Assembly: GCA_009015555.1 (NCBI GenBank)
Contig: GCA_009015555.1_3613.1
DNA from: a phage
DNA: 64,000 bases
Strand: one strand, 5' to 3'
The translations under genes were made by a program, and so were the position numbers. Of this stretch, positions 7,978-63,563 are shown in pieces (position 1 is the first letter of the stretch; every line of letters starts with the position of its first letter). Below the pieces are notes generated by a model. That model had not been told where the DNA came from. It did no database searches and saw nothing but the letters and a program-made list of their open reading frames with translations.

Positions 7978-8010
7978 TAAAAAGGCACCCTAACGGGTGC
8001 CTTTCTTTTT
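7978..8010. terminator. bidirectional rho-independent terminator between convergent blocks
   Basis: AAAAA-GGCACCC-TAAC-GGGTGCC-TTTCTTTTT: A-tract on one side and T-tract on the other. Confidence 0.8.
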
Positions 8011-8021
8011 ATCATGACAAC

Positions 8022-9254
8022 TTAGAAGGGGATGTCATCGTCGAAATCAACTTCCGGCGGAGTCATGTCGATATGACCGTTGCTGCTTGTCGCAGGAGTC
8101 GATTGTAGAGTCTCCGGTTTAGGGTCCACCTTAGGGTCAGGCTGGGACTGTGCAGTTTGTGCCACAGAGCCACCAGAACTTTGCTCACCCTTGACGTATG
8201 CAGATACGCCCGGGACAACCTCGCTCATGAGACCACGAGCATAAGCCAACAGCTTACCAGTGATCTCTTCTGGATTGTCGTTCTCACCAACCTGGATATC
8301 ACGGGTGGCGTTCAGAACAGCATGGCCCACCATCGCACCCAGATCGTAATCAGACATACCCTTGTTAGCCGGATCATTTGCAGCGTCCAGCTTCAGATGT
8401 TTGGTGACATCATGAACAACCTTGGCTACTTCCACCACCGGAGGGATAGTCAGACCGCTACGACGCAGGTTCAGGGCACCGTTCAGTGCATGGCCCGTTT
8501 CCATACCGGAGTTGTCCTTCTTGAAACCACCTTTGGAACCGCCCGCACCTGCACCAGCAGAACCTTTTGGACCGTAGGCTTTGAAACCTGACAATGTACC
8601 ATCCTCAGCACGTTGCCCTGCCAGGCGACCACCCACCTGAACTTGGGCGATCTGCTCTTTGTTCAGAACCACAGAGACTTCATTACCGTTCTCATCCTTC
8701 ACCACAGCGCCTGTATCGCTCAGGGAGAGGATTTCTCCGTAAACCTTAGTGGTTTTGCCACCTGGGGCGTTGGACGACGCAGAGGACGTCTGAGAGCCTC
8801 CTGCATTGCCTGCCGGGGCGGCATCACGGGCACCGGATTTGTCGGTAATAACGATCTTGGATTTCTTACCCTCCGGGGCAGAGCGTTCGTTGCCGTCACT
8901 ATCAGTCCACTTACGGATCTGGACAGGAACACGAATTGCCATACCCGGCTTCAGGTCAACCCATACTTCGCCTTCTTTTACCTGATACTGGCTTTCGTAT
9001 TTCATGTTCTTCACTTCGTGAGTTCCGAAGCTGATCCACACCTGATCTTCACCGTTTTTAACCAGCAGAGATGCACGGTGAGTGGCAACGATAGTCTTAC
9101 CCTTGTTCGGACCCTTGTTAATGGGGGTAATTTTCGGACTGCCGTCCTCGTTGATGCGTTTAATGTTGATACGTTCGATAGTACCAACAGCCAGGCTTAC
9201 CGTAGAGTTGTCGATCGGGTTAACTACTTCGGTAATTACTTTAACATCAGACAT
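8022..9254 (-). CDS. ssb: single-stranded DNA-binding protein
   Basis: C-terminus DFDDDIPF (bacterial SSB-type acidic tail); Gly/Ser/Ala-rich linker; N-terminal beta-rich region. Confidence 0.75.
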   Translation of the reverse strand: MSDVKVITEVVNPIDNSTVSLAVGTIERINIKRINEDGSPKITPINKGPNKGKTIVATHRASLLVKNGEDQVWISFGTHEVKNMKYESQYQVKEGEVWVDLKPGMAIRVPVQIRKWTDSDGNERSAPEGKKSKIVITDKSGARDAAPAGNAGGSQTSSASSNAPGGKTTKVYGEILSLSDTGAVVKDENGNEVSVVLNKEQIAQVQVGGRLAGQRAEDGTLSGFKAYGPKGSAGAGAGGSKGGFKKDNSGMETGHALNGALNLRRSGLTIPPVVEVAKVVHDVTKHLKLDAANDPANKGMSDYDLGAMVGHAVLNATRDIQVGENDNPEEITGKLLAYARGLMSEVVPGVSAYVKGEQSSGGSVAQTAQSQPDPKVDPKPETLQSTPATSSNGHIDMTPPEVDFDDDIPF

Positions 9255-9339
9255 TCACTTCTCCTTCGAGGATAAACAAGGCCCCAGAATTGAGGCCAGG
9301 ACAACAGGTTACCACATTTACTCAGAATTGCAAGGTGCC

Positions 9340-9525
9340 TTACCAGACACCGAACCAAACGCCGACCCCGTGGATAACACCGACCGGGGCGAAGATAGCA
9401 CCCGCAATCAGGAACAGCCACGACGCAGTTTTGATACACACCACAACGTGGGTGATCCATGCGACGATGGATGCGATTACGATTGCCAGCCAACCCAGAC
9501 CTAAACCTGCCAGTAACTTGTTCAT
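9340..9525 (-). CDS. small membrane protein (two TM)
   Basis: 61-aa ORF, almost entirely hydrophobic. Confidence 0.4.
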   Translation of the reverse strand: MNKLLAGLGLGWLAIVIASIVAWITHVVVCIKTASWLFLIAGAIFAPVGVIHGVGVWFGVW

Positions 9526-9537
9526 TTCCTCTCCTTT

Positions 9538-9915
9538 TTACAAATAGACGCGCTGCACCTCTTTGTCTGCTTGATCAAACATCAAGTTTGCAGCATTAAT
9601 GTCCTTAATCATCTCCTCCGTCATCTGATCCGGGCGCAATGCCCGCAGTGAACGTTTGAAGAGGACTTTCGGATCTTCAGTTACATCTCCCGACACATCG
9701 AACATCTTGATGATCATCTTCACCGGAACCTCACGAGAAATCTGTCCGCCGACGTTGATGGCGTATGTAGCCCCTACTTCAACTTGACGGTGGTCCAGTT
9801 CGTACATCAGATTCAGGTTAACGTATTTGTATTCGTCGCAGCGAGTAATGTTCTTCTGTGCCTGAACACAAACCCAGCCCGGCTCAACAAAAGTGTTATC
9901 GAAAATGCTCATCAT
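9538..9915 (-). CDS. hypothetical protein
   Basis: Track ORF in operon orientation; no motif recognised. Confidence 0.5.
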   Translation of the reverse strand: MMSIFDNTFVEPGWVCVQAQKNITRCDEYKYVNLNLMYELDHRQVEVGATYAINVGGQISREVPVKMIIKMFDVSGDVTEDPKVLFKRSLRALRPDQMTEEMIKDINAANLMFDQADKEVQRVYL

Positions 9916-9967
9916 GTCTTCCTCATCAGTTAATGTTGTGACCAGTATACCTACATTCCCGTAGAAG

Positions 9968-10621
9968 TCAACTTACTTTTGAAATTACCAGTTTTTGAAC
10001 GTAGCCCTGCAACAGGGCGTAAGTTACACCACCCACATAACTACCGCCGACAGAGAGTCTCTCTCCGGCACCGAACCAGTTGGGAACAGAAAAGTTCTGA
10101 ACTTCCCCGCTCACCATATTTCTCACACGGATCTGCCGAGAGTCCGGGTAAGTTTCGATCCGCAGATTAAAAACTTGGCCCTGATTACCATTGATCGAGC
10201 AACGAACATAATTTCCGCTGTTGTCTGTTGGGAACAATTGGTGCCCTCCAACCCCAACCATGCCATAATGCGCCAGTCCGGCGACGATCCTTGTGACGTA
10301 ATCGCCAGAACACCACACCATCTGGGTTGCAGAAGGACTAAGGCTTTGGAAAACAACCTCAATCACCATAGGATCTGTGGATAGATCCACTGAATACTGA
10401 GTTTGGAAATACCCTTGGCCTTGGGCAGGTATGAACTGCATGACCCTTCCAATCCCTGCAACATCGACTATCCTTGGGCCTGTGCCGACCAAAGAGAAGG
10501 TGTGGTTTTCAGACCAGTCCTTCAAAACAGTCTCGCCGAGAGATTGCCGTGTGGCATCCACGTAGAGAATGGCATCCTCTTTGCGAGATGACTTCCCTAT
10601 AATCATTATCTCGTTCATCAA
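9968..10621 (-). CDS. hypothetical protein
   Basis: 217-aa ORF; 4-nt overlap with the downstream gene. Confidence 0.55.
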   Translation of the reverse strand: MMNEIMIIGKSSRKEDAILYVDATRQSLGETVLKDWSENHTFSLVGTGPRIVDVAGIGRVMQFIPAQGQGYFQTQYSVDLSTDPMVIEVVFQSLSPSATQMVWCSGDYVTRIVAGLAHYGMVGVGGHQLFPTDNSGNYVRCSINGNQGQVFNLRIETYPDSRQIRVRNMVSGEVQNFSVPNWFGAGERLSVGGSYVGGVTYALLQGYVQKLVISKVS

Positions 10622-16917: not shown

Positions 16918-16946
16918 ATTATGGGGCCTTTCGGCCCCGCTGTCAA
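16918..16946 (-). promoter_or_regulatory. sigma70-type promoter with GC hairpin in spacer (minus strand)
   Basis: Minus strand TTGACA-gcGGGGCCgaaaGGCCC-CATAAT. Confidence 0.7.
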
Positions 16947-54424: not shown

Positions 54425-55264
54425 ATGTCCTCATTTGATGCAGCTTTTCTACACGGTGTCGCTGATTATTCCAAGGGCACCAGTCCAACGCCCGAGATCC
54501 CCGATTGGAAAAATTTACAGCGGCGGCTGTCTGATGTCCAAGATACTTTGCTGAAGGAATGGCAGAGCAATGATTCTGTAGCTTCCGACATCAAAGACAT
54601 AGCCAGTGATTTTGACTTTGATTCTTCTCTTGAGGATTTTGTTTACAGGGCCAACGAAAAGATAGATACTTTGCACCGCGCTGTGCGTGATTCGTGTTAC
54701 GATCTGAAGATGAACTGGGACCCGGATGGAATGACCCGTGACCAGATGGTGACCTTTGTCGAAAACTTGAAGGACCAACTTGAAGAGTACCTACCACAAT
54801 CCCACATAATGAAAGATGTGGTTATGGGTTGGTACGGGTACAATGTGGCCCGGTTTGTTCAGGATTACCATGCACTGGGTCAAGCCTGGTTGTCATATAC
54901 CCACGATGATACGTACATGGGGGATCTGGAAGATTCCAAACTTGGAGACTTGACCATCAAGGCGTGTTCGAACGGCATCCTCCGATTATCCACCCAGTGG
55001 GTGCCAGGCTACCTGTACTTTACCAGTGATAATAAGATTATCCTTGGGGGTGAGAAGCACAGTCTTGCCATGAAAGTAGAAGAGTTCAGGACTTTCTTTG
55101 ATGACTGGAAGCGACCAACGGAAGAAGAGATTGCCCTGTTTGATGTCCTCAACCCTGGGGCCAACTGGTCTGTGTTCAGATACTTGAGGGATTACGAAGG
55201 GAAGAACTACATCTCGAACGTGAAACCGATCACATTGCAGGTGTCGGTTAGCACCAAGCTGTGA
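54425..55264 (+). CDS. hypothetical protein (279 aa), last gene before the repeat region
   Basis: Long ORF; no motif recognised. Confidence 0.6.
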   Translation: MSSFDAAFLHGVADYSKGTSPTPEIPDWKNLQRRLSDVQDTLLKEWQSNDSVASDIKDIASDFDFDSSLEDFVYRANEKIDTLHRAVRDSCYDLKMNWDPDGMTRDQMVTFVENLKDQLEEYLPQSHIMKDVVMGWYGYNVARFVQDYHALGQAWLSYTHDDTYMGDLEDSKLGDLTIKACSNGILRLSTQWVPGYLYFTSDNKIILGGEKHSLAMKVEEFRTFFDDWKRPTEEEIALFDVLNPGANWSVFRYLRDYEGKNYISNVKPITLQVSVSTKL

Positions 55265-55440
55265 TATTTGTGGGCCAAGGACGGCTCAGTTTTCAGATCG
55301 GATTTCGATTTGATATTTGCCTGTGATATTTGCGCCGATATTTGAAATCAGATTTCAATTCGAAATTCAATTTGAGATTTTATTTGAGATGGCCCGCCGG
55401 GCCGGGACTCAGATCAGATTCCTTTTTCAGATTTACTCAA
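55263..55440. repeat. cluster of short A/T-rich direct repeats (GATATTTG / GATTTCGA / ATTTGAGAT)
   Basis: gtGATATTTGtg ... GATTTCGATTTGATATTTGcctgtGATATTTGcgccGATATTTGaaatcaGATTTCAATTCGAAATTCAATTTGAGATTTTATTTGAGAT. Confidence 0.7.
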
Positions 55441-55564
55441 CAATGTACCAGCACACCCGGCCCCGGTCAAGGGCTAATGTACCATAAATGTTACATTAAG
55501 GGGCTTATGCACCACTAACGGCACATATACGTTACAATACGGGAGTTATCTCTGGTCAAAAAAT

Positions 55565-55735
55565 TTGAGGGTCTCGATCGGTTTTTCGTTTTGCCGATCG
55601 TATTCTCTGCCCGCCGGGCCGGACTGGGGTCTCGGTACAGAAAGCAGGGTCTCGATCGAAAACTCAATTTCGAGATCGTATTCTCGATACAGGTACAGGT
55701 CTCCGCCCGGGGTCTCGATCGAGATTTCATTTTCA
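55565..55735. repeat. three ~45-bp direct repeats GGGTCTCGATCG-N-CGTATTCTC
   Basis: GGGTCTCGATCG at 55569, 55647 and 55710, each followed 14-18 nt later by CGTATTCTC; GCCCGCCGGGCCGG blocks in between. Confidence 0.75.
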
Positions 55736-55769
55736 AAAACGTATTCTCAAAATCTATACAGAGGTGAAA

Positions 55770-55895
55770 ATCGAAATGAGAATTTTTATCATTCACGTTA
55801 GGCCCGAGGCGAAATGAGAATCGTTCTCATTTGCAAATTGAAATGATAATTATTCGCATTTACGTAGTTGAATGAGAATCATTCTCATCTCCAGA
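55770..55895. repeat. four palindromic repeats GAAATGAGAAT-n-ATTCTCATTT
   Basis: Four copies, two of them perfect palindromes (AAATGAGAA-TCG-TTCTCATTT; ATGAGAAT-C-ATTCTCAT). Confidence 0.75.
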
Positions 55896-56164
55896 ATAGC
55901 GGGCACCCCCGGTGATTGTCTCCGGGTCATTTCTCCCCGCTATGTGTATAATATAGCCCAACCCCGGCCCGGTTGCAAGCGTCTTTACAGTTCTTTACAA
56001 AACTATTTTGGACGAACTACCGGCGATCCACCTTCCGACCTGGCCCCGGTGCCCGGTACGTTAGCCCCGCCTTTTCGCCGTGGGGTGGCGTCTCCTCTCC
56101 TGTATGTGTACATTATGGACTAGCCCCGCCGGGCCGTCAATACCAAAACGAAAATAAATTTTTC

Positions 56165-56193
56165 TTGACCTGCCAGGCAAGCCGGGCCACAAT
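56165..56193 (+). promoter_or_regulatory. sigma70-type promoter
   Basis: TTGACC-17-CACAAT ahead of ORF 56223. Confidence 0.55.
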
Positions 56194-56222
56194 GCAGGCA
56201 CACCAACAAAGGAGATCGACCG

Positions 56223-56555
56223 ATGCAACAGACGAAATATTTTATTGAAGGTAACGCCGCCGCCCACGCCGGGCAGATCCGCGCCTGCCGCTACAATAAA
56301 GAAGAGAACCGCCGCGAATGGTTCGCCGGGTTCGATAGTGTGGATCGTGGTTTCGCCGTGTTTAAGATCCTGCCTGGTCCCGGCGCTGTTAAGCTGGCGG
56401 ACCTGGACCCGGTTTATATTGGTGGCGTCAAGCAATGCCAGGATCGCGCCGTCACACTGCAACAGGCGGACCGCGCCGGGCAATATGTGATCTATGATAT
56501 GACAACGGGCAAGCCGTACCAGGAAAGCACAAAATTAAATTACAAAAAGATTTAA
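56223..56555 (+). CDS. small early-type protein (110 aa)
   Basis: AAGGAG RBS; own promoter; no homolog recognised. Confidence 0.6.
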   Translation: MQQTKYFIEGNAAAHAGQIRACRYNKEENRREWFAGFDSVDRGFAVFKILPGPGAVKLADLDPVYIGGVKQCQDRAVTLQQADRAGQYVIYDMTTGKPYQESTKLNYKKI

Positions 56556-56563
56556 AATAATGC

Positions 56564-56592
56564 TTGACGGGGCCAGCGATAGGCCCCATAAT
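56564..56592 (+). promoter_or_regulatory. sigma70 promoter with GGGGCC...GGCCCC spacer hairpin
   Basis: TTGACG-gGGGCCagcgataGGCCC-CATAAT. Confidence 0.75.
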
Positions 56593-56647
56593 TCACCACA
56601 TAGCGACGCACACCGCGCCGCGCTAACAGAAGAGAGAGACCGTTATC

Positions 56648-57088
56648 ATGTTACATTCAATCAATAAAGAACAACGCCTTTACGTTATGCCTTGCGGGAA
56701 TGGCTTTACCTGCTACGGGTTCGACGTGTTAGACAAACGCGCCCGCGCCTTGTCTGCCTGGTACTTTGAACAGAATCCGCAAGCTATCGCACAGATCCCC
56801 GCCCGGATTGGCACTAAAAAACATTTTAAAGCCTGCCAGGCAGTGATCCAGCAGGTGGGCCGCTATTGCACCCATAAGGGCATTAAATGCCCGGTTGAAT
56901 TGTCGCCACAATTAAAAGGCCTGGAGGGTCGCCGGGTTGAGGTTGTCACCATGTACGGCGAAAAGCGCCGCTTTATTGTGGGCCGTTCTACTGGCTGGCT
57001 GGTCACTCATCTGGAGATCCCCCGCGCCAACAGTAGCGGCGGTATGAGCGCCGAAAAACAATACAAATCTGTAACCGTCATAAAATAA
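56648..57088 (+). CDS. small early-type protein (146 aa)
   Basis: Own promoter and a conserved leader shared with ORFs 60528 and 63616. Confidence 0.6.
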   Translation: MLHSINKEQRLYVMPCGNGFTCYGFDVLDKRARALSAWYFEQNPQAIAQIPARIGTKKHFKACQAVIQQVGRYCTHKGIKCPVELSPQLKGLEGRRVEVVTMYGEKRRFIVGRSTGWLVTHLEIPRANSSGGMSAEKQYKSVTVIK

Positions 57089-57101
57089 TTTAAAAATAGT
57101 A

Positions 57102-57130
57102 TTGACACCGGGGCCACCTGGCCCCATACT
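57102..57130 (+). promoter_or_regulatory. sigma70 promoter with spacer hairpin
   Basis: TTGACA-ccGGGGCCacctGGCCC-CATACT. Confidence 0.7.
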
Positions 57131-57180
57131 ACAAACAAGCCCGGCAAATGGTGCCCGGCAAAATCAGAGAGTAAAAGAAA

Positions 57181-57402
57181 ATGGCTAAAGTAACCTATAA
57201 AAAATCACGTGGCATTTCCTCTGTTAACCTGGCGGCGGTTGTAACCCTGCCCGCATACCGTACCCGCGACGAGGCCCGCGCCGTTGCCAGTAAGATCCGC
57301 GCCGCTGGCGTGACCCCGACAACGCCAACCAAAACGGCGGACGGCTGGCGCGTTACCGCAAAGCATAACGGCGGCACACTTTCCCGCAACACTCACCGCT
57401 AA
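57181..57402 (+). CDS. small early-type protein (73 aa)
   Basis: Purine-rich RBS; own promoter. Confidence 0.55.
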   Translation: MAKVTYKKSRGISSVNLAAVVTLPAYRTRDEARAVASKIRAAGVTPTTPTKTADGWRVTAKHNGGTLSRNTHR

Positions 57403-57409
57403 CCAATTG

Positions 57410-57434
57410 CAGGCCCCCGCCGGGGGCCTTTCGT
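57410..57434 (+). terminator. GC hairpin with weak T-tract (possible terminator or processing site)
   Basis: GGCCCCC-GCCG-GGGGCC followed by TTTCGTGT. Confidence 0.4.
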
Positions 57435-57448
57435 GTGGAGTCAGTACC

Positions 57449-57793
57449 ATGACCAAACAGATCCCCGCTGTCCAGATCACGCCGCTTTTCCGTTGCCATA
57501 TCTTTTATGACTGTAATGATCTTGCGGGGCAATGGATCGGCGATACCGATCAACAATATGATTTCCCGGAATGGGACGAACTAAACCGCCGTGTAAGCAA
57601 CGCCGCACACAATGCCGATCCTGATAGCCTGGCGGACGTGGAACACTTCCCCGGCGGGGCCGCTTGCTTTCCTTATATTGAGATCACCGCGCCAACGTGG
57701 GCGCTATGTAAAGCGATGAGCGACGCCGTGATCCGTTGCATCCTGGACAATGGCGGGATCGTCGAACCAAAAGACAACGGAATAAATATTTAA
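57449..57793 (+). CDS. small early-type protein (114 aa)
   Basis: GGAG RBS; no promoter of its own. Confidence 0.5.
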   Translation: MTKQIPAVQITPLFRCHIFYDCNDLAGQWIGDTDQQYDFPEWDELNRRVSNAAHNADPDSLADVEHFPGGAACFPYIEITAPTWALCKAMSDAVIRCILDNGGIVEPKDNGINI

Positions 57794-57812
57794 ATTATTT
57801 TGCTTTTGGGGG

Positions 57813-57841
57813 TTGACGCCCGGCGGCGCTTCCCCCATAAT
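57813..57841 (+). promoter_or_regulatory. sigma70 promoter with GC-rich spacer
   Basis: TTGACG-17-CATAAT, flanked by GGGGG / CCCCC. Confidence 0.7.
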
Positions 57842-57894
57842 ACACCACATAGGGCGACGGAATAACCCGCCGCCAAAAACCAAAAGGTAACAGT

Positions 57895-58134
57895 ATGCAA
57901 ACCGTAATGATTAGCCACCCGGATCACGCTTCAGATTTCTACGCACCGATCTACGCCCCGCTTGAATGGCAACGCCAGGGCCTGCAAAAAACCGCCACGG
58001 GCTATGGCACCAAGATCCCCACGTCCTATATGTTGGACTATCAAGGCAAGCGCCGCCGGATCTATGTTGACCAGTACAGCAACGCCGGGCACACTTACAT
58101 AATGATCAAAGGCGAAAAAATTACAGTTTGCTAA
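57895..58134 (+). CDS. small early-type protein (79 aa)
   Basis: AAAAGG RBS; own promoter. Confidence 0.55.
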   Translation: MQTVMISHPDHASDFYAPIYAPLEWQRQGLQKTATGYGTKIPTSYMLDYQGKRRRIYVDQYSNAGHTYIMIKGEKITVC

Positions 58135-58143
58135 AAATAATTG

Positions 58144-58172
58144 TTGACCGGGGGCCGGGTAGGCCCCATAAT
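58144..58172 (+). promoter_or_regulatory. sigma70 promoter with spacer hairpin
   Basis: TTGACC-gGGGGCCgggtaGGCCC-CATAAT. Confidence 0.75.
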
Positions 58173-58212
58173 ACCAGACATACCAAACAGACAAGAAAAC
58201 GAGGCTTACAAA

Positions 58213-58443
58213 ATGAATCTGACTACTATCGGCGCTAACCAAACCATGATCACCCTGGCCGACGGCTCACAGGTTTTCTTTTCCTACAATACCCCGGTTG
58301 CGGCATACCTGCCCGGCGTGGGCTATGTAGTGACCGCCAAAAAGCACAGCGCCACCACGTCAAAACATGTTAATGCTTGGGCTGGCAAAGGTTGCGACAC
58401 CCGCCCACAGGAATTTTTTGATAATCTCATTAAATCCGCTTGA
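58213..58443 (+). CDS. small early-type protein (76 aa)
   Basis: GAGG RBS; track start 58141 lies inside the promoter. Confidence 0.55.
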   Translation: MNLTTIGANQTMITLADGSQVFFSYNTPVAAYLPGVGYVVTAKKHSATTSKHVNAWAGKGCDTRPQEFFDNLIKSA

Positions 58444-58469
58444 CGTTTGAATTATGCCGGGGTTATAAT
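58440..58469 (+). promoter_or_regulatory. sigma70 promoter with -10 in a hairpin loop
   Basis: TTGACG-18-TATAAT; GCCGGGG-ttataat-TCCCGGC. Confidence 0.7.
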
Positions 58470-58519
58470 TCCCGGCATAGACAAGCGAAAGCAAACAACC
58501 AAACCGAAAGGATCACACA

Positions 58520-58900
58520 ATGAACATTATCAACACTGTAAACGCCGCCGACATCAAAGAAATTTCCGTAACTGGTAAACGTTGGTTCCAGCGTAGCTAC
58601 GGCAACACTTATCACAGCGTAAGCCTGGGGGCGCTGGTATCCGTTGAAGTGGCGGACCGCTTAGGCGCTAACAAGTACGGCAACAAAAGCGGCGACGTGT
58701 GGATCGACCTGGCTTATGTTGGTTTCGCCTATGGTTATGATCGCGGGTTCGAACAAACCGCATTAAGCGCGATGATCGAGGCGGTGAAGGATGCCCCGGC
58801 GGCGTGGCGTGGTATGTCCTACGCTTGCCAGGCGGCGGCGGATCTCGGGGTTGTCTACACTGATAACGTTTATGATGTTAGCCGCAAAAAAGATTTATAA
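58520..58900 (+). CDS. small early-type protein (126 aa)
   Basis: AAAGGA RBS; GYDRGFEQTAL segment loosely resembles GYNREDAAFQEAI in ORF 59264. Confidence 0.6.
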   Translation: MNIINTVNAADIKEISVTGKRWFQRSYGNTYHSVSLGALVSVEVADRLGANKYGNKSGDVWIDLAYVGFAYGYDRGFEQTALSAMIEAVKDAPAAWRGMSYACQAAADLGVVYTDNVYDVSRKKDL

Positions 58901-58906
58901 TTTTGG

Positions 58907-58936
58907 TTGACACGGGGCCGGGTTAGGCCCCATAAT
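58907..58936 (+). promoter_or_regulatory. sigma70 promoter with spacer hairpin
   Basis: TTGACA-cGGGGCCgggttaGGCCC-CATAAT. Confidence 0.75.
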
Positions 58937-58968
58937 ACCCCCACACCAACAGAAAAGAGATTGACACC

Positions 58969-59178
58969 ATGATCAACGAACAGCAAGTAAACGACGTTAA
59001 ACATGAGGCTTACCAGGTGGCGATCCGTAGTGGTTCCCGCGCCGCCTTCAATCTGGTTATTGAGTTGTACCCTGAACAGGCGGAAAATATTTTAATGCAG
59101 GTTTCCGTATTACTGGAAGCAACAAAGCACACCAAATTAAGCGCCGGGATCGATAAGCTGGCAAAAAGTTTAAAATAG
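58969..59178 (+). CDS. small early-type protein (69 aa)
   Basis: AAGAGA RBS; own promoter. Confidence 0.55.
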   Translation: MINEQQVNDVKHEAYQVAIRSGSRAAFNLVIELYPEQAENILMQVSVLLEATKHTKLSAGIDKLAKSLK

Positions 59179-59181
59179 TTG

Positions 59182-59211
59182 TTGACTCTTACCCCGTCCC
59201 GCTGGCATAAT
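59182..59211 (+). promoter_or_regulatory. sigma70 promoter with -10 in a hairpin loop
   Basis: TTGACT-18-CATAAT; GTCCCGCT-ggcataat-AGCGGGAC. Confidence 0.7.
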
Positions 59212-59263
59212 AGCGGGACTGATTAAGAGAAACACCACAAACCAAACGAAGAGAGAAAACATT

Positions 59264-59650
59264 ATGAACGCTACTTACGATTTTTCCAACATGGTTGTAA
59301 CTTCTGGCGACCTGGGCAAGGCCCGTAACCAAAACAATTTTTACAAGGCCGTTCACCTGGTCGGGCTGGTAGACAATGAGATCAAAGATCTGGCGGAGGT
59401 CCGCTTCTACGGCACCGGGAAAACTAACACGGCGATCCTTTGGATTCACTCCCCGATCCTGGGTCTGTATGGTTCGGAGTTTGGCAAGGCTGGCGGCTAT
59501 GGCTATAATCGCGAAGATGCAGCATTTCAGGAGGCGATCCGCAAGATGGGGGTTAAGGGTGACGGATACCATACGCCCCGCGATTTTTTCGAGGCCCTTG
59601 CTAAATATCTTGGGGTTGCTGTATACTCTGTTATTGAATCCCATGCTTAA
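59264..59650 (+). CDS. small early-type protein (128 aa)
   Basis: AAGAGAGAAA RBS; own promoter. Confidence 0.6.
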   Translation: MNATYDFSNMVVTSGDLGKARNQNNFYKAVHLVGLVDNEIKDLAEVRFYGTGKTNTAILWIHSPILGLYGSEFGKAGGYGYNREDAAFQEAIRKMGVKGDGYHTPRDFFEALAKYLGVAVYSVIESHA

Positions 59651-59659
59651 TGGTGTATA

Positions 59660-59971
59660 ATGACAATCGTAACTCTGATTTGTTTAGCACTGGCGGCGCT
59701 TTATTGCGTCGCCACTCACAAAGCCGCACTATGGCGAAAGGGTCAAAAAATGTACGGTTATTTTGAATACGAGTACAAAGGGGAGAAGGGATCAAGCCGG
59801 GACTATGGCGCAATGTGTGAGATCGATATGGTTGGCGCTATGAACTACCGCCAGGAGTTGGGCGCGGTGATCACTTATGAGGTTTACGACTCCTCAGAAG
59901 AGAAGATCGGAGAAATAATCGATCAACGTTACTACATGGAACAACAGCAAAACAAACGCCGGAGAAGATGA
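59660..59971 (+). CDS. hypothetical protein with N-terminal hydrophobic segment (start uncertain)
   Basis: Track ORF; alternative start at MYGYFEYEY; no clear promoter. Confidence 0.4.
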   Translation: MTIVTLICLALAALYCVATHKAALWRKGQKMYGYFEYEYKGEKGSSRDYGAMCEIDMVGAMNYRQELGAVITYEVYDSSEEKIGEIIDQRYYMEQQQNKRRRR

Positions 59972-59973
59972 GA

Positions 59974-60108
59974 ATGATTCACACTAACATTAACCGCGAT
60001 AAACAACCGCGCCGCGCCCGTCTCTCATACGCTGAAGCAGGCGAGCGCCTGCAACGTGAGAAGGCCAACAAACAACAGCGCCGTAAAACGCGCTATAACT
60101 GGGAGTAA
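59974..60108 (+). CDS. tiny Arg/Lys-rich protein (44 aa)
   Basis: Hand-translated MIHTNINRDKQPRRARLSYAEAGERLQREKANKQQRRKTRYNWE; GGAGAAGATGAGA before the ATG. Confidence 0.35.
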   Translation: MIHTNINRDKQPRRARLSYAEAGERLQREKANKQQRRKTRYNWE

Positions 60109-60143
60109 GCGCCCCGGCATGGAAACACCAGGCCAAACAGTTT

Positions 60144-60170
60144 AAACCGCACAGGGGGCCGCTTAGGCCC
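60144..60170 (+). terminator. rho-independent terminator
   Basis: GGGGGCC-GCTTA-GGCCCC followed by TTATTTTTT. Confidence 0.75.
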
Positions 60171-60184
60171 CTTATTTTTTATCT

Positions 60185-60424
60185 ATGGGGTACACAATGC
60201 AAAACCTTTTAACCTTAACAGATTTTATCCGGGCTATGGGGTCCCGTCCGATGGGGTTTAGCGCCCTTTACCTGGTAACCGATGGCAAAGGATACCGCGC
60301 CACCTGCAAAGCGCTTGCCGCCGTTGCGGCCCGCGAAGGGGTCAAGATCTCCACGGGTCAAGCCTTGGTAGTTGACCCGGCGACATTGGCAACGGCGGAG
60401 GCGATCCGGGTCACTGTAAAATAA
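60185..60424 (+). CDS. small early-type protein (75-79 aa)
   Basis: ATG at 60185 or 60197; no promoter of its own. Confidence 0.5.
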   Translation: MGYTMQNLLTLTDFIRAMGSRPMGFSALYLVTDGKGYRATCKALAAVAAREGVKISTGQALVVDPATLATAEAIRVTVK

Positions 60425-60448
60425 TTTAAAATATTTTCATCCTGGGGC

Positions 60449-60477
60449 TTGACGTCCGGCCCCGGTTCCCCCATAAT
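60449..60477 (+). promoter_or_regulatory. sigma70 promoter with GC-rich spacer
   Basis: TTGACG-tccGGCCCCggttcccc-CATAAT. Confidence 0.75.
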
Positions 60478-60527
60478 CTAACCCATAGCGACGCACACCG
60501 CGCCGCACTAACAGAAGAGAGACCGTT

Positions 60528-60962
60528 ATGACTTCCCCAATTTTCCGTATCAAATCAGGTTTATCCGTTTACGCACTGGCTTGCGGCTATATCCAAGAGA
60601 TCGACACAAAGATCACCGGGAAAAATATCCGGGTACAGCTTTTAATGGAACACGGCGCTTTTCACGTCAAGGCACATGATTTTGATGACGTGGGCCGGAT
60701 CGAGTGGGTTGTTGAAGATCAGATCGGCGACGCCCGCACACAATGGAAAGCGCTTGTTAATCAGCTTTTCGGGGAAGTTATCCGCACAATCAAAAAAGAT
60801 AAGCGCTACACCGTAACCCGTGAATTTTCCGGCGACCCTTGCGGGGCCTTGTATGTTACCCGTTTTTGTGGGGAATTTGTAAGCCGTGCCGACACAATCC
60901 CCGGCGCATGGGTAAAAGCCGCCGAACACAACGCCGAAAGAATGAAAAATTATCAAAAATAA
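60528..60962 (+). CDS. small early-type protein (144 aa)
   Basis: Shares the conserved leader with ORFs 56648 and 63616. Confidence 0.6.
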   Translation: MTSPIFRIKSGLSVYALACGYIQEIDTKITGKNIRVQLLMEHGAFHVKAHDFDDVGRIEWVVEDQIGDARTQWKALVNQLFGEVIRTIKKDKRYTVTREFSGDPCGALYVTRFCGEFVSRADTIPGAWVKAAEHNAERMKNYQK

Positions 60963-60964
60963 TT

Positions 60965-60993
60965 GTTGACCGGGGCCGGGTTAGGCCCCATAA
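60965..60993 (+). promoter_or_regulatory. sigma70 promoter with spacer hairpin
   Basis: TTGACC-GGGGCCgggttaGGCCC-CATAAT. Confidence 0.75.
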
Positions 60994-61025
60994 TACCCCC
61001 AGACAAACAAACCGGAGTTAGACCA

Positions 61026-61178
61026 ATGAAACAATATCTTGTAAACATCCCTGGCGTGGCTGGCCCGTTGAAAGTTTATGGCTATGATGAGCAGGACGCA
61101 AGAAAGCGCCTACGTGATCGGGAAGGTTTCGGATCACGCCTCCCACGTGGCACAAAATTTTATTTGCAAAACGCTTGA
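61026..61178 (+). CDS. tiny basic protein (50 aa)
   Basis: GGAG RBS; track start 60963 lies inside the promoter. Confidence 0.45.
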   Translation: MKQYLVNIPGVAGPLKVYGYDEQDARKRLRDREGFGSRLPRGTKFYLQNA

Positions 61179-61203
61179 CGTGTGGTTATGCCGTCGCCTA
61201 TAA
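61174..61203 (+). promoter_or_regulatory. sigma70 promoter with -10 in a hairpin loop
   Basis: TTGACG-18-TATAAT; ATGCCGTC-gcctataat-GACGGCAT. Confidence 0.7.
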
Positions 61204-61257
61204 TGACGGCATAGACAAACGAAAGCAACACCAGACAACCAAACGAGGGTTAAAATT

Positions 61258-61515
61258 ATGTTTGAAGTATTCGCCGGAATGTGTTTTTATGCCGCCGCCG
61301 CTTTAAAACAGTGTGATGATTACACCGTTGAAGCATACGACGATCAGTTAACTTGCGAGATCGTCGCCAACGGCTACCGCCAGGACCCGCGCTGGATTAA
61401 TCCGGCTTGTATCCCTGGGCCGGAAGTTGAAGCAATGCCGGAAGGTGAGCCGCTATTAGAACCGATCCCGGCGGCTAATCACTTGAACGTAAACCCGGCG
61501 CAAAAAGAGTATTAA
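61258..61515 (+). CDS. small early-type acidic protein (85 aa)
   Basis: GAGGG RBS; own promoter. Confidence 0.55.
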   Translation: MFEVFAGMCFYAAAALKQCDDYTVEAYDDQLTCEIVANGYRQDPRWINPACIPGPEVEAMPEGEPLLEPIPAANHLNVNPAQKEY

Positions 61516-61521
61516 AAGCGC

Positions 61522-61551
61522 TTGACGCCGGGACGGTTCCCGGCTTATAAT
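61522..61551 (+). promoter_or_regulatory. sigma70 promoter, CCGGGA...TCCCGG spacer palindrome
   Basis: TTGACG-CCGGGAcggtTCCCGGC-TTATAAT. Confidence 0.8.
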
Positions 61552-61588
61552 CTCAGACATACCAAACAGGCAAATGAGGCCGCAAATC

Positions 61589-61795
61589 ATGACACGTTAT
61601 TTTGTTACTCGCAATGTTTACCGCTTAGAAAATGGCAACGTTTACCGCTGGAGTGGGGCGCGTGGTGGCTGGTTGCACCGTGACGGCTTTACCCCTTCAG
61701 ATCTCACCGATGGGACCGTGATCGGCGCGGTTGAGGTATCAGAAGAGGAAGCAAACCGCCGGATCTCTGAATTGTTAAAAGGCGGTGCAAAATGA
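61589..61795 (+). CDS. small early-type protein (68 aa)
   Basis: GAGG RBS; own promoter. Confidence 0.5.
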   Translation: MTRYFVTRNVYRLENGNVYRWSGARGGWLHRDGFTPSDLTDGTVIGAVEVSEEEANRRISELLKGGAK

Positions 61796-61971
61796 AATCA
61801 TCTTTACTTTTCGCCCTGGTTGACATCGTGATCGGCAATGGTTGCGGGCAACATACATTTATTGCTAACCGCCCCTATCCGCTAAAGTCATTGCAGGCTG
61901 ACGCCCGATTAACAGCGGCACAGATCCGCCGCTACTTTCGGGAACCACACCCGGCAAAGAATGCAAAATAA
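61792..61971 (+). CDS. small protein (59 aa), translationally coupled
   Basis: Hand-translated MKSSLLFALVDIVIGNGCGQHTF..; ATGA overlap. Confidence 0.4.
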   Translation: MKSSLLFALVDIVIGNGCGQHTFIANRPYPLKSLQADARLTAAQIRRYFREPHPAKNAK

Positions 61972-61974
61972 TTG

Positions 61975-62004
61975 TTGACGCCGGGCACCGTCCCGGCTTA
62001 CAAT
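61975..62004 (+). promoter_or_regulatory. sigma70 promoter, GCCGGG...CCCGGC spacer palindrome
   Basis: TTGACG-CCGGGCaccgTCCCGGC-TTACAAT. Confidence 0.75.
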
Positions 62005-62034
62005 GACCCCACACAAACAAACGAGGCTTTAAAC

Positions 62035-62340
62035 ATGCAACAGGCTAACACTCTTTTCATTCTGGCAAACGTAGCGGATCACGTCGTGGCGTCGCTGTCC
62101 AACGTAGCGGGCACCGTCCAGATCATTTGTCGTCATATGGATGACAAAGCGCCGAACCGCTTACAAATCAACGTAGACCGCGACGGGAAAGAATTTGTGA
62201 TCTCTTATGACGCTATCTATAATGGCAACCGGATCACGCAAGCCAAAAGCCAACCGATCCCCGCCGATTTTATCCAGCAAGTGATCGCCGAAATCGTAAA
62301 CGACACGATCCCAGCGGGGGCGCTGTATGAATCCGCATAA
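62035..62340 (+). CDS. small early-type protein (101 aa)
   Basis: GAGG RBS; track start 61972 lies inside the promoter. Confidence 0.55.
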   Translation: MQQANTLFILANVADHVVASLSNVAGTVQIICRHMDDKAPNRLQINVDRDGKEFVISYDAIYNGNRITQAKSQPIPADFIQQVIAEIVNDTIPAGALYESA

Positions 62341-62482
62341 ACTCTTAATCACCAGTTACCCCAGCAAGGCGGATCGCCGTGAAACTTTGGACCGCTTAAC
62401 GCGCTACTATCAGGAGGCCGGGCACAATAAGACAACCGCCCGCGCCCTGGCTAAAAAGCGTTTGCGATTTGGTAAAAATTAG
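62327..62482 (+). CDS. tiny basic protein (51 aa)
   Basis: Hand-translated MNPHKLLITSYPSKADRRETLDRLTRYYQEAGHNKTTARALAKKRLRFGKN; overlaps the upstream gene by 14 nt. Confidence 0.4.
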   Translation: MNPHKLLITSYPSKADRRETLDRLTRYYQEAGHNKTTARALAKKRLRFGKN

Positions 62483-62483
62483 C

Positions 62484-62513
62484 TTGACGCCGGGAACCGT
62501 CCCGGCTTATAAT
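62484..62513 (+). promoter_or_regulatory. sigma70 promoter, GCCGGG...CCCGGC spacer palindrome
   Basis: TTGACG-CCGGGAaccgTCCCGGC-TTATAAT. Confidence 0.8.
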
Positions 62514-62564
62514 CTCTCACATAGCGCGGGGGATGGTCCCCGCATTATCTAAGAGGTTATGAAT

Positions 62565-62717
62565 ATGTTTACTTTGATGACTTGGGAACACGAAACAAGC
62601 TCCCCGATCCGCCGCACTTTTGAAGACCTATGCGCCGCTTATCGCCTGGCGCAAGGCGGTTATTATAAGGCCCAAATCATTGATGAAAACAATGTGATCA
62701 TGTACGAATTTAAATGA
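62565..62717 (+). CDS. tiny protein (50 aa)
   Basis: Hand-translated MFTLMTWEHETSSPIRRTFEDLCAAYRLAQGGYYKAQIIDENNVIMYEFK; AAGAGG RBS 8 nt upstream. Confidence 0.45.
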   Translation: MFTLMTWEHETSSPIRRTFEDLCAAYRLAQGGYYKAQIIDENNVIMYEFK

Positions 62718-62746
62718 TTGACATCCGGCCCGAAAGGGCCGATAAT
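62718..62746 (+). promoter_or_regulatory. sigma70 promoter with spacer hairpin
   Basis: TTGACA-tccGGCCCgaaaGGGCC-GATAAT. Confidence 0.7.
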
Positions 62747-62777
62747 GACCCACACCAACAAAAGAGAGACCGTAAAA

Positions 62778-62984
62778 ATGATTACAATGATTCTGCAAAA
62801 GTCCCGCCTGATTGATGTTACTGTTACCCTGTCCGCTTGCGGTGAATCATCCCGCCGGGCCGATCATTACCAGGTTACCGCTGTAAGCGACAACGGCGCG
62901 ATCCTTCTCTCTGAAGCGACCCCCGCGCTACATGAGGCATTTTTGACCTATTCGAAGTGGAAAGGGCCGGAAGAAATAAAATAA
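62778..62984 (+). CDS. small early-type protein (68 aa)
   Basis: Track start 62718 lies inside the promoter; start taken at MITMILQ. Confidence 0.5.
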   Translation: MITMILQKSRLIDVTVTLSACGESSRRADHYQVTAVSDNGAILLSEATPALHEAFLTYSKWKGPEEIK

Positions 62985-62991
62985 AAAGTAG

Positions 62992-63020
62992 TTGACGGCG
63001 GGGCCGATAGGCCCCATAAT
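62992..63020 (+). promoter_or_regulatory. sigma70 promoter with spacer hairpin
   Basis: TTGACG-gcGGGGCCgataGGCCC-CATAAT. Confidence 0.75.
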
Positions 63021-63052
63021 ACCCCCACACCAAACGAAATAGGATTCACAAA

Positions 63053-63307
63053 ATGTTAAAATTCATCAAATCACTTTTCACCCGCACCGCCCCGGCTTGC
63101 AAGTTGCCACCGCTGGAGGCGCAAGGCGTGATCGCTCGCAAAGTCTCAGAACTGTTTATCATTTCATTGGTTCACAATGGCGGCGACTGTTACGAAATCA
63201 TCGAAATGGGCCGCTACACCAACACCGGATCAAGCCGTGTCCGCTACGGTGAACACCGCGCCCGGAATCATTTTGATTCTGTATGCTGTATGGTTGGTGC
63301 AAAATGA
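63053..63307 (+). CDS. small early-type protein (84 aa)
   Basis: AGGA RBS; own promoter. Confidence 0.55.
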   Translation: MLKFIKSLFTRTAPACKLPPLEAQGVIARKVSELFIISLVHNGGDCYEIIEMGRYTNTGSSRVRYGEHRARNHFDSVCCMVGAK

Positions 63308-63516
63308 TCGCGTTTACCTTTGAGCGCCTGCCGGACACCTCCCCCCGCTGGGGGGAGTGTGAAGAGGTTGTGATCCTTGCCCGCGATGAGGCGCAAGCCT
63401 GGCAGATGTTAGGGGAATATGTAGCGGCGCACACGTTGCCAGCCTGGAAGCTGGCAGAACAAAAGCCAGCCGCGCCCGGCGTGATCTTTTTCACGTCCTA
63501 CACGTTAGGCGTTTAA
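63304..63516 (+). CDS. small protein (70 aa), translationally coupled
   Basis: ATGA overlap with the upstream stop. Confidence 0.5.
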   Translation: MIAFTFERLPDTSPRWGECEEVVILARDEAQAWQMLGEYVAAHTLPAWKLAEQKPAAPGVIFFTSYTLGV

Positions 63517-63533
63517 TCTTTACAAAACTATTG

Positions 63534-63563
63534 TTGACGCCGGGCACCGTCCCGGCCTATAAT
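63534..63563 (+). promoter_or_regulatory. sigma70 promoter, GCCGGG...CCCGGC spacer palindrome
   Basis: TTGACG-CCGGGCaccgTCCCGGC-CTATAAT, followed by the conserved leader. Confidence 0.8.

Follow-up and report, generated by a model that had tools for sequence, protein, structure and literature searches.

The stretch analysed here, 64,000 nucleotides of phage DNA (contig GCA_009015555.1_3613.1; below, the window), contains at 55265-56222 a gap of 958 bp between the stop codon of gene CR3_127 (55264) and the ATG of gene CR3_128 (56223), both genes being on the + strand. The window is ∼99.8% identical to Cronobacter phage CR3 (Certrevirus, Vequintavirinae), as measured for the query 55200-56250. 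The safest statement that sequence comparison permits is that the gap appears to be a conserved, multi-module, non-coding control region heading the early-gene array, with a phased array of putative Fur operators, common to the injection-stop region of phage T5, plus predicted leftward early promoters, of which one has a CpxR-type box. A further-reaching reading, the best that we can offer though held tentatively, is that the early-gene array has at its upstream edge a control or insulator region responsive to host signals. A preliminary sequence-only reading had proposed for this place a replication origin, a packaging or terminal-repeat boundary, or a dense operator array. The last of these proposals has gained support from near-consensus candidate Fur boxes, from a CpxR-type box abutting a promoter and from motifs conserved independently of reading frame; what that reading had overlooked was the connection with T5 and the presence of three promoters that point leftward within the region.

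Four 19-bp palindromes of the 9-1-9 form (55775-55793, 55813-55831, 55842-55860 and 55871-55889) were recovered by three independent tools, in agreement with the four palindromic units that had been noticed before. Palindromes 2-4 follow each other with a 29-bp period, and the GC content of the segment 55761-55895 is 35.6%. We scored the palindromes with an independent matrix made from 17 Fur sites of A. baumannii (PMC3055841). The four palindromes had scores of 21.5-22.6 bits; as controls, the training sites had leave-one-out scores of 13-29 bits and listed E. coli iron boxes had 14-25 bits. Besides these four palindromes and a weaker site at 55836 (15.7 bits), which is the single Fur-like site in CR3 offset by 6 bp, nothing in 64 kb scored above 13 bits. 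A lone site GATGAGAATGATTCACACT at 59967-59985, within the early-gene array and apparently at or near a gene junction, had 12.6 bits and is probably Fur-like by chance.

The unit AATGAGAATCATTCTCATT is the same as the Xanthomonas Fur consensus AATGAgAATcATTctCATT, for which 84% identity with the Fur consensuses of Shewanella and Bacillus has been reported (PMC1790865), and the four palindromes of the window are identical to this consensus in 16-18 of 19 positions. By sequence match, then, they are near-consensus candidate Fur boxes. Footprints in E. coli define a 9-1-9 minimal Fur unit and overlapping sites offset by 6 bp (PMC2189734). The 9-1-9 reading of the palindromes accords with this minimal unit, and the 6-bp offsets are clear in the arrays of T5-like phages and other viruses, where a spacing of 6 bp was counted 49 times. 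We observed one unit of 28.7 bits per genus, with the exceptions of the rV5-type phages (25.5) and Justusliebigvirus arall (21.3). Operators of Zur, KdgR, CRP and the LacI family, compared by eye, were each a poorer fit than Fur. We found no published link of Fur to the T5 or rV5 repeats in the literature searched.

It is possible that the palindromes are operators of a dimeric protein encoded by the phage, with the likeness to Fur boxes arising from mimicry or coincidence. The full 29-bp unit is conserved together with its spacer, beyond the needs of a 19-bp Fur site, and many units have G/C where the E. coli consensus has T/A (TGAGAAT, ATTCTCA/ATTCGCA). However, G/C variants of this kind are found in bona fide Fur sites, e.g. 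in the listed Gram-negative iron box GATAATGAGAATCATTATT (PMC10665472) and in the Xanthomonas and Acinetobacter sets, and overlapping sites with 6-bp offset are a hallmark of Fur. Moreover, the T5-like, rV5-like and phAPEC8-like phages that carry the arrays are unrelated, and no common DNA-binding protein was seen beside the arrays. We consider a phage-encoded ligand improbable and keep host Fur as the preferred candidate.

The link to T5 emerged from a sensitive BLAST search, in which 55812-55888 aligned to T5-like phages at 77-86% identity, with the similarity limited to ∼76-82 bp. These matches fall in the untranslated Repeat Region 3, which is the candidate injection stop signal. In T5 this region (9194-10409) includes position 10139, where the left terminal repeat ends, carries multiple repeats and is more conserved than the adjoining genes (Davison, bioRxiv 10.1101/866236). 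The units matching ours are the annotated palindromes E-I with direct repeat C; they occupy 9468-9637 and are flanked by the DnaA-box inverted repeat and the 7.9% nick. Matches to the Fur matrix start there at 9473, 9577, 9612 and 9618 (the boxes span 9473-9636), and the calculated shear or stop point of first-step transfer (FST) of T5 DNA is 9618 (Davison, bioRxiv 10.1101/866236).

The 29-bp unit with its spacer recurs in Vequintavirinae, Stephanstirmvirinae and T5-like phages, and the unit and its period are found in six phage groups; therefore, we have to consider either common descent by horizontal transfer or a strongly constrained unit. Genes flanking the region in Certrevirus have no homology to those in T5-like phages. 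As a Fur-box array would need host factors only, it could have moved among unrelated lineages (T5-like, rV5-like, phAPEC8-like). One may go further and imagine a portable 29-bp Fur-box array, dependent on host factors only, that three unrelated lineages of virulent enterobacterial phages have put at genome ends or at edges of early regions. Host Fur, alone or with adjacent DnaA and LexA, would then be a pre-existing host part of the T5 injection stop, and iron status would gate genome entry or early transcription. We propose Fur as a component of the T5 stop because the T5 boxes coincide with the stop at 9618, just left of the 7.9% nick; the proposal as a whole is a long shot.

An ORF-free gap (ORF, open reading frame) of 1-1.5 kb is present at the syntenic position in Certrevirus, Seunavirus, Mydovirus and Vequintavirus, as well as in Phapecoctavirus and Justusliebigvirus of the Stephanstirmvirinae. 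In all of them the modules follow one order: the upstream stop codon, GATATTT motifs, A/T-rich short repeats, three long direct repeats and the palindromes are followed by a GC hairpin, a leftward promoter, CTTTACA-N-CTTTACA, a nearly invariant block of ∼90 bp and a second leftward promoter. Comparison of genera gives 78-84% identity for the non-coding core, whereas the upstream proteins of CR3 and a Seunavirus have no more than 22% identity; thus, the DNA itself is under strong selection. All three repeat families are non-random, conserved and unique within the 64 kb. We saw no second module of similar kind in the window: of the two places where genes switch strand, the one at ∼8 kb is a bidirectional terminator and the one at ∼44 kb has no gap. 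In side observations on these two places, the sign of GC skew and gene orientation change together at both; the 8-kb switch is a plain bidirectional terminator at 7981-8010, and the 44-kb switch is a divergent point without a sizeable non-coding gap. A counterpart of the region in host chromosomes was not found among 5,426 E. coli genomes.

That no convincing ORF lies between the stop at 55264 and the promoter array was confirmed by a codon-position test, by ORFs broken in relatives and by gene calls inconsistent in frame. The coding option deserved a check because the spacings of the long direct repeats, 78 and 63 nt, are multiples of three and an ORF remains open in close relatives. In the ORF at 55565-55801, substitutions were distributed over the three codon positions as 48/46/42 (P = 0.81), with no excess in the third position; in a flanking gene the same test gave 144/95/231 (P = 7e-14). 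Most of the internal ORFs are interrupted in close relatives by stops or frameshifts, and two remain open there, of which the ORF at 55565-55801 is one. The other, at 55872-56123 (83 aa), is open in several close relatives; we doubt its coding status mainly because of indels of 1, 4, 5 and 6 nt that occur inside it between genera. In Mydo, KE23 and F2M1E the ORFs annotated over the repeats are in different frames, and the three repeats of KE23 fall in all three frames. With no codon-position bias and with all three frames used in other genera, we rejected the possibility that the repeats encode protein. Genomes F2M1E (L007), P7_Pc (L010), KE23 (L013) and Mydo (L014) have from one to five ‘hypothetical protein’ genes annotated, automatically or manually, inside the region; these calls are likely false, as their frames vary from genome to genome. 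It appears that several automated annotations have put spurious genes into this region.

Three leftward promoters of sigma-70 type are predicted inside the region. The first, P1 (56112..56140, - strand), has TTGACG and CATAAT separated by a 17-nt spacer that forms a GC hairpin; it is indistinguishable from the rightward early promoters and stands back-to-back with the first of them (56165..56193, + strand; TTGACC, 17-nt spacer, CACAAT), which drives CR3_128. The region is, as had been claimed, located at the junction with the promoter array: 16 + strand promoters of the form TTGAC-N-(GC hairpin)-CATAAT lie at 56165-63534 upstream of short early genes, with spacer hairpins that vary in sequence and keep pairing. 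An isolated member of this family was seen far from the array, at 16946 on the - strand. The promoter-like site P2 (55950..55978, - strand; TTGCAA, 17-nt spacer, TATATT) is conserved in all genera examined. The third site, P3 (55442..55470, - strand; TTGACC, 17-nt spacer, TACATT), is kept in most of the Certrevirus sequences; its spacer is GC-rich and, in some relatives, capable of forming a hairpin from different sequences.

Five nucleotides upstream of the -35 element of P2 there is a perfect tandem box GTAAA-N5-GTAAA (GTAAAGAACTGTAAA, 55984..55998, - strand), the only match to this pattern in the window with 0.02 expected. The CpxR consensus is GTAAA(N)4-8GTAAA (PMC9603713). The box is conserved while N5 varies, and it occurs in the same position in all loci of Vequintavirinae and Stephanstirmvirinae, except for the rV5-type phages and for PcCB7V, which has a deletion. 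The box fits the CpxR type, though a direct repeat of this form might also serve other regulators of the OmpR family or an UP-like element.

Within ∼50 nt of its predicted start, the P2 transcript would contain a GC-rich hairpin, ATAGCGGG...CCCGCTAT with inner CCCGG/CCGGG (55896..55944, - strand). This hairpin is conserved across genera, with 93.9% of cells paired as compared with 25-51% in slid controls; G-U pairs suit a leftward (minus-strand) RNA, and covariation is weak. Between P2 and P1 we observed a GC-rich block of ∼90 bp (56010..56103) that is nearly invariant across genera and has 84% identity to Justusliebigvirus. Indels in the block (1, 4, 5 and 6 nt) are not multiples of three, indicating that it is non-coding. 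As a candidate for structured RNA the block was rejected: its folding z-scores against shuffled sequences were from -1.4 to +1.2 on both strands, and covariation was minimal. The block is dispensable in PcCB7V (L012), which has lost it in a clean deletion corresponding to 55945-56107 of the window, between two 34-nt direct repeats (D7) that flank the block. In P7_Pc (L010, ∼2080-2330) an extra, diverged promoter unit is inserted at the site of the PcCB7V deletion. The promoter units act as a small tandem family.

A side observation concerns the interval that separates the first rightward promoter from the invariant block, where phiTE and several Stephanstirmvirinae have a small leftward gene (motif LGWQGGTVHQVA) that CR3 does not have. 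On the - strand it was found at 3941-4222 in L001, 1838-2050 in L015, 2838-3104 in L005 and ∼1660-1930 in L016. An unrelated small leftward gene (DUF7170) occupies the same position in Mydo. A Pfam search with the small leftward genes of phiTE, ESCO5 and Mydo gave no informative family for those of the LGWQGGTVHQVA type; the annotation of the phiTE gene (143 aa) looks over-extended.

Three promoters with no ORF behind them could also mean that the region is a cluster of small non-coding RNA genes, each of P1-P3 making a short leftward RNA, either a regulatory small RNA or an anti-defence decoy of pseudo-ToxI type, and the repeats being RNA hairpins. Deletion (PcCB7V) and duplication (P7_Pc) have occurred unit by unit between paralogous promoter units; the hairpin conserved at the 5′-end after P2 and the folding z-score of the P2 leader (-4.6) also count in favour of this reading. 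Certrevirus also provides a precedent for a repeat-based decoy RNA, the pseudo-ToxI of phiTE (PMC3475682). Still, phiTE has its pseudo-ToxI at another locus (106.7 kb), and a covariance search with Rfam 15 (E <= 10) returned noise only (E >= 0.7). For neither strand of the invariant block did the folding z-score depart much from 0, covariation in it was almost nil, and clear intrinsic terminators were not found. Palindromic DNA folds on either strand by construction, and the palindromes are better explained as double-stranded operators. We give a small-RNA cluster a poor chance in comparison with a control region built on DNA operators.

Several related candidates were examined and dismissed. 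A mimic of the type III antitoxin was rejected for lack of similarity and for its different locus: the escape locus of phiTE is at 106,714-106,772, between genes 202 and 203 (PMC3475682), and the CR3 region corresponds to 38.9-39.8 kb of phiTE. No Rfam families and no tRNA-like elements were found at the region. In the whole 64-kb window ARAGORN predicted no tRNA genes; CR3 was reported to have 18, and these must be located in the remaining part of the genome.

The mechanism that we infer from the anatomy of the region would work as follows. Host RNA polymerase would fire P1-P3 early, transcribing leftward over non-coding DNA, while iron-loaded dimers of host Fur would occupy the four operators. 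As the operators are 29 bp apart, successive dimers would spiral round the helix. Bound Fur may then make a nucleoprotein block gating leftward transcription; alternatively, it may insulate the early array from read-through from the upstream operon or from spreading silencers. In either case the start of the phage programme would be coupled to the iron status of the host and, via the GTAAA box, possibly to envelope stress. The GATATTT motifs and the bipartite 40-bp repeats would be binding arrays for a protein, probably one encoded by the phage.

A number of points weigh against this reading. Occupancy of the sites by Fur and CpxR is deduced from the sequence of the boxes. The model leaves two of the three repeat families and the ∼90-bp invariant block unexplained. 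No clear overlap with a strong promoter is seen for the Fur boxes; they lie at about +55 to +170 from the predicted start of P2. A weak candidate promoter, TTGAAT-N18-CAGAAT, does lie over unit 4 in CR3, Mydo and the rV5-type phages, but not in KE23, ESCO5 and arall. For the leftward RNAs there are no clear intrinsic terminators in the region. Finally, as the T5 array is situated in a convergent, promoter-poor zone, one can argue for a structural rather than a promoter-operator role.

The other two repeat families proved to be real as well. The short A/T-rich repeats begin with four copies of GATATTT(G) on the + strand, at 55263, 55312, 55325 and 55337, clustered within 80 bp (55263..55343); there are 19 matches to GATATTT in the whole 64 kb on both strands. 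The first copy overlaps the stop codon of CR3_127, and copies 2-4 are spaced by 12-13 bp. All the copies are invariant across eight Certrevirus sequences, and two to three copies occur at the equivalent site in Seunavirus, Mydovirus, rV5-type and Stephanstirmvirinae loci. They are followed by conserved degenerate A/T-rich repeats (GATTTCAATTCGAAATTCAATTTGAGATTT...; families D2 and D10) at 55344..55434, with a GC content of 40%.

The long direct repeats, earlier described as ∼45 bp, are three bipartite 40-nt units GGGTCTCGATCG-N18-CGTATTCTC on the + strand, at 55568-55607, 55646-55685 and 55709-55748, with 75% mutual identity and a half copy at 55627. Each of the anchors, GGGTCTCGATCG and CGTATTCTC, is found three times without a mismatch, once per copy, and is otherwise absent from the window; the spacer is always 18 nt, and the anchors are invariant in the Certrevirus alignment. 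Copies 1 and 2 contain internal dyads built from different sequences. Seunavirus, Mydovirus and rV5-type phages have three equivalents each, while in Stephanstirmvirinae three unrelated long repeats occupy this position. The GC blocks, too, were real features: the hairpin GGCCCGCCGGGCC that interrupts the A/T-rich repeats (55391-55406, inverted repeat I1), a hairpin within the segment of 40-nt repeats (55609-55622) and the block at 56123-56134. Just upstream of the -35 element of P3 we found a dyad, TAATGTACC-N6-GTTACATTA (55475-55498), and a pair of 27-nt direct repeats (55483-55509 and 55524-55550), all within 55475..55550.

Several repeat families, together with promoters aimed into A/T-rich DNA, would suit a lytic replication origin, one of the roles for which the sequence-only reading had found this architecture typical. 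Early transcripts running leftward from P1-P3 would open the A/T-rich DNA or act as primers there, and a phage initiator would use as iterons the palindromes, the 40-bp repeats or the GATATTT repeats. The position of the region is conserved across two subfamilies, and the authors of the rV5 genome failed to locate an origin by skew analysis (PMC3606486). The 300-bp stretch with the lowest GC content in the window (41.3%) is here as well, but the drop is marginal, as other stretches have 41.7-42.3%. Against an origin, there is no cluster of DnaA boxes (one consensus 9-mer in the region, and six in the window vs five expected), the GC-skew minimum is elsewhere, at ∼44 kb, and GATC is not enriched. 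The spacings of 63-78 bp and 29 bp differ from the 22 bp of classical iterons, and the palindromes match the consensus of a host repressor rather than a phage-specific sequence. In T5 the palindrome array is at 8% of the genome, while T5 origins are near the centre (Davison, bioRxiv 10.1101/866236). An origin at this place is unlikely, in our opinion.

As for a packaging or terminal-repeat boundary, the idea does not fit the genus to which the window belongs and is not baseless for other phages. The genomes of phiTE and CB7 are circularly permuted, and neither a peak in coverage nor ends sensitive to BAL-31 were observed (PMC3475682; PMC7344957); a terminal-repeat boundary does not fit Certrevirus for this reason. 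Related sets of motifs, on the other hand, sit at the real termini of T5, KPP-1 and BME3, within or beside their terminal repeats. The region might then be a pac site for headful start of packaging, or a relic of a terminal repeat, and the small terminase subunit would bind the repeats; phiTE is a generalised transducer (PMC3475682). The T5 palindromes resembling Fur boxes are in the same untranslated region in which the left terminal repeat ends (10139). In KPP-1, the 514-bp direct terminal repeat (DTR) contains a Fur box of 26.5 bits and, at its left edge, a leftward promoter with a paralogous GTAAA box, and AAATATC motifs with GGGCCAAG lie ∼70-130 bp outside this edge. In BME3, a Fur box of 28.5 bits is 53 bp from the start of a 342-bp DTR. 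Nevertheless, BME3 has a syntenic copy of the region 11.6 kb away from its DTR, and the KPP-1 DTR has essentially no BLAST similarity to the region itself, in either its Mydovirus or its CR3 version (one 26-nt match), so that it appears to be a separate locus. The absence of a coverage peak and of a BAL-31-sensitive band in the permuted genomes of phiTE and CB7 argues in the same direction (PMC3475682; PMC7344957).

The KPP-1 DTR belongs to a second multi-motif region of that phage (L029, MT438396; 1900-2600), non-syntenic with the CR3 region, in which we observed AAATATC repeats, GGGCCAAG, GTAAA-N5-GTAAA by the leftward promoter, A/T repeats resembling TTTCGAATTCAATTTCGAAAT and Fur boxes.

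To this evidence one can add viral contigs from IMG/VR. The exact 19-mer of the Fur box is present in at least 120 contigs (4-170 kb), of which 119 loci (L031-L149) were examined. Three or more strong Fur matches within 400 bp were observed in 25 of the 119 loci. In 31 loci (26%) the exact box was no farther than 400 bp from a contig end, and one contig (L096/L097) had it near both ends. These placements may represent real genome ends, but the enrichment may also come from assemblies that break at repeats. With all this considered, a role in packaging is very unlikely for the CR3 region, and we return to the control or insulator region as the preferred reading.

What is new here is the match to Fur boxes, the unit shared with T5-like phages, the predicted leftward promoters and the CpxR-type box; the early promoter family and the gap in rV5 had been known. 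The analysis thus offers a candidate identity, Fur operators, for repeats that had been catalogued and left unexplained, namely those of the T5 injection-stop region and of the ‘non-coding’ box of rV5. The module is common to three phage lineages that are much used in therapy and biocontrol. If Fur does bind, early development and possibly the two-step injection of T5 would be tied to host iron status, which varies strongly between gut, plants and infection sites.

Among known systems, lambda ori, T4 oriF/oriG and the T7 primary origin represent phage origins of the iteron or promoter-plus-unwinding type. The CR3 region likewise has several repeat families, palindromic units in fours and promoters directed into A/T-rich DNA; unlike these origins, it has no initiator gene nearby, no DnaA boxes and no skew signal, and its repeats are spaced differently. 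Comparison with classical Fur operators shows that both match the consensus and the matrix and that the CR3 boxes are likewise clustered. Classical Fur boxes overlap the -35 and -10 elements of the promoter that they repress, whereas the CR3 boxes are phased at 29 bp, are downstream of a promoter and belong to a virulent phage. At ftnA, a multi-site upstream Fur array opposes silencing by H-NS.

The early promoters of CR3 and its relatives have been described as sigma-70-like, AAAA-N3-TGTTGAC-N17-19-TATAAT, in published passages (PMC7344957). Both P1 and the rightward promoters of the array fit this family; the promoters described in those passages precede genes, and leftward members in a gene-free region do not appear there (PMC7344957). 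On the rV5 map of 2013, a grey ‘non-coding’ box without ORFs was drawn at the syntenic locus and left unexplained (PMC3606486). This box is syntenic with the CR3 region; the rV5-type phages have two modules of promoter, hairpin and Fur box, without the GTAAA box and the invariant block.

The closest parallel is Repeat Region 3 of T5, and the two regions differ in their surroundings. The T5 region has in addition a pair of DnaA boxes (IRD'-spacer-IRC'), a LexA-type palindrome, nine 15-bp DRD repeats, the 7.9% nick and the end of the terminal repeat. The DnaA-box pair, the LexA-type palindrome and the DRD repeats are not found in the CR3 region, so only the palindrome module is common. The T5 region combines a long terminal repeat with a fixed nick or FST end beside it, whereas Certrevirus genomes are circularly permuted; the T5 flanking genes converge on the region, whereas both CR3 flanks read rightward. 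Within the palindrome module the agreement extends to the 29-bp unit, its spacer and its period, as can be seen from CATTTACGTAGTTGAATGAGAAT in CR3 and CATTTAGGAAGTTGAATGAGAAT in the T5-like phage KEY.

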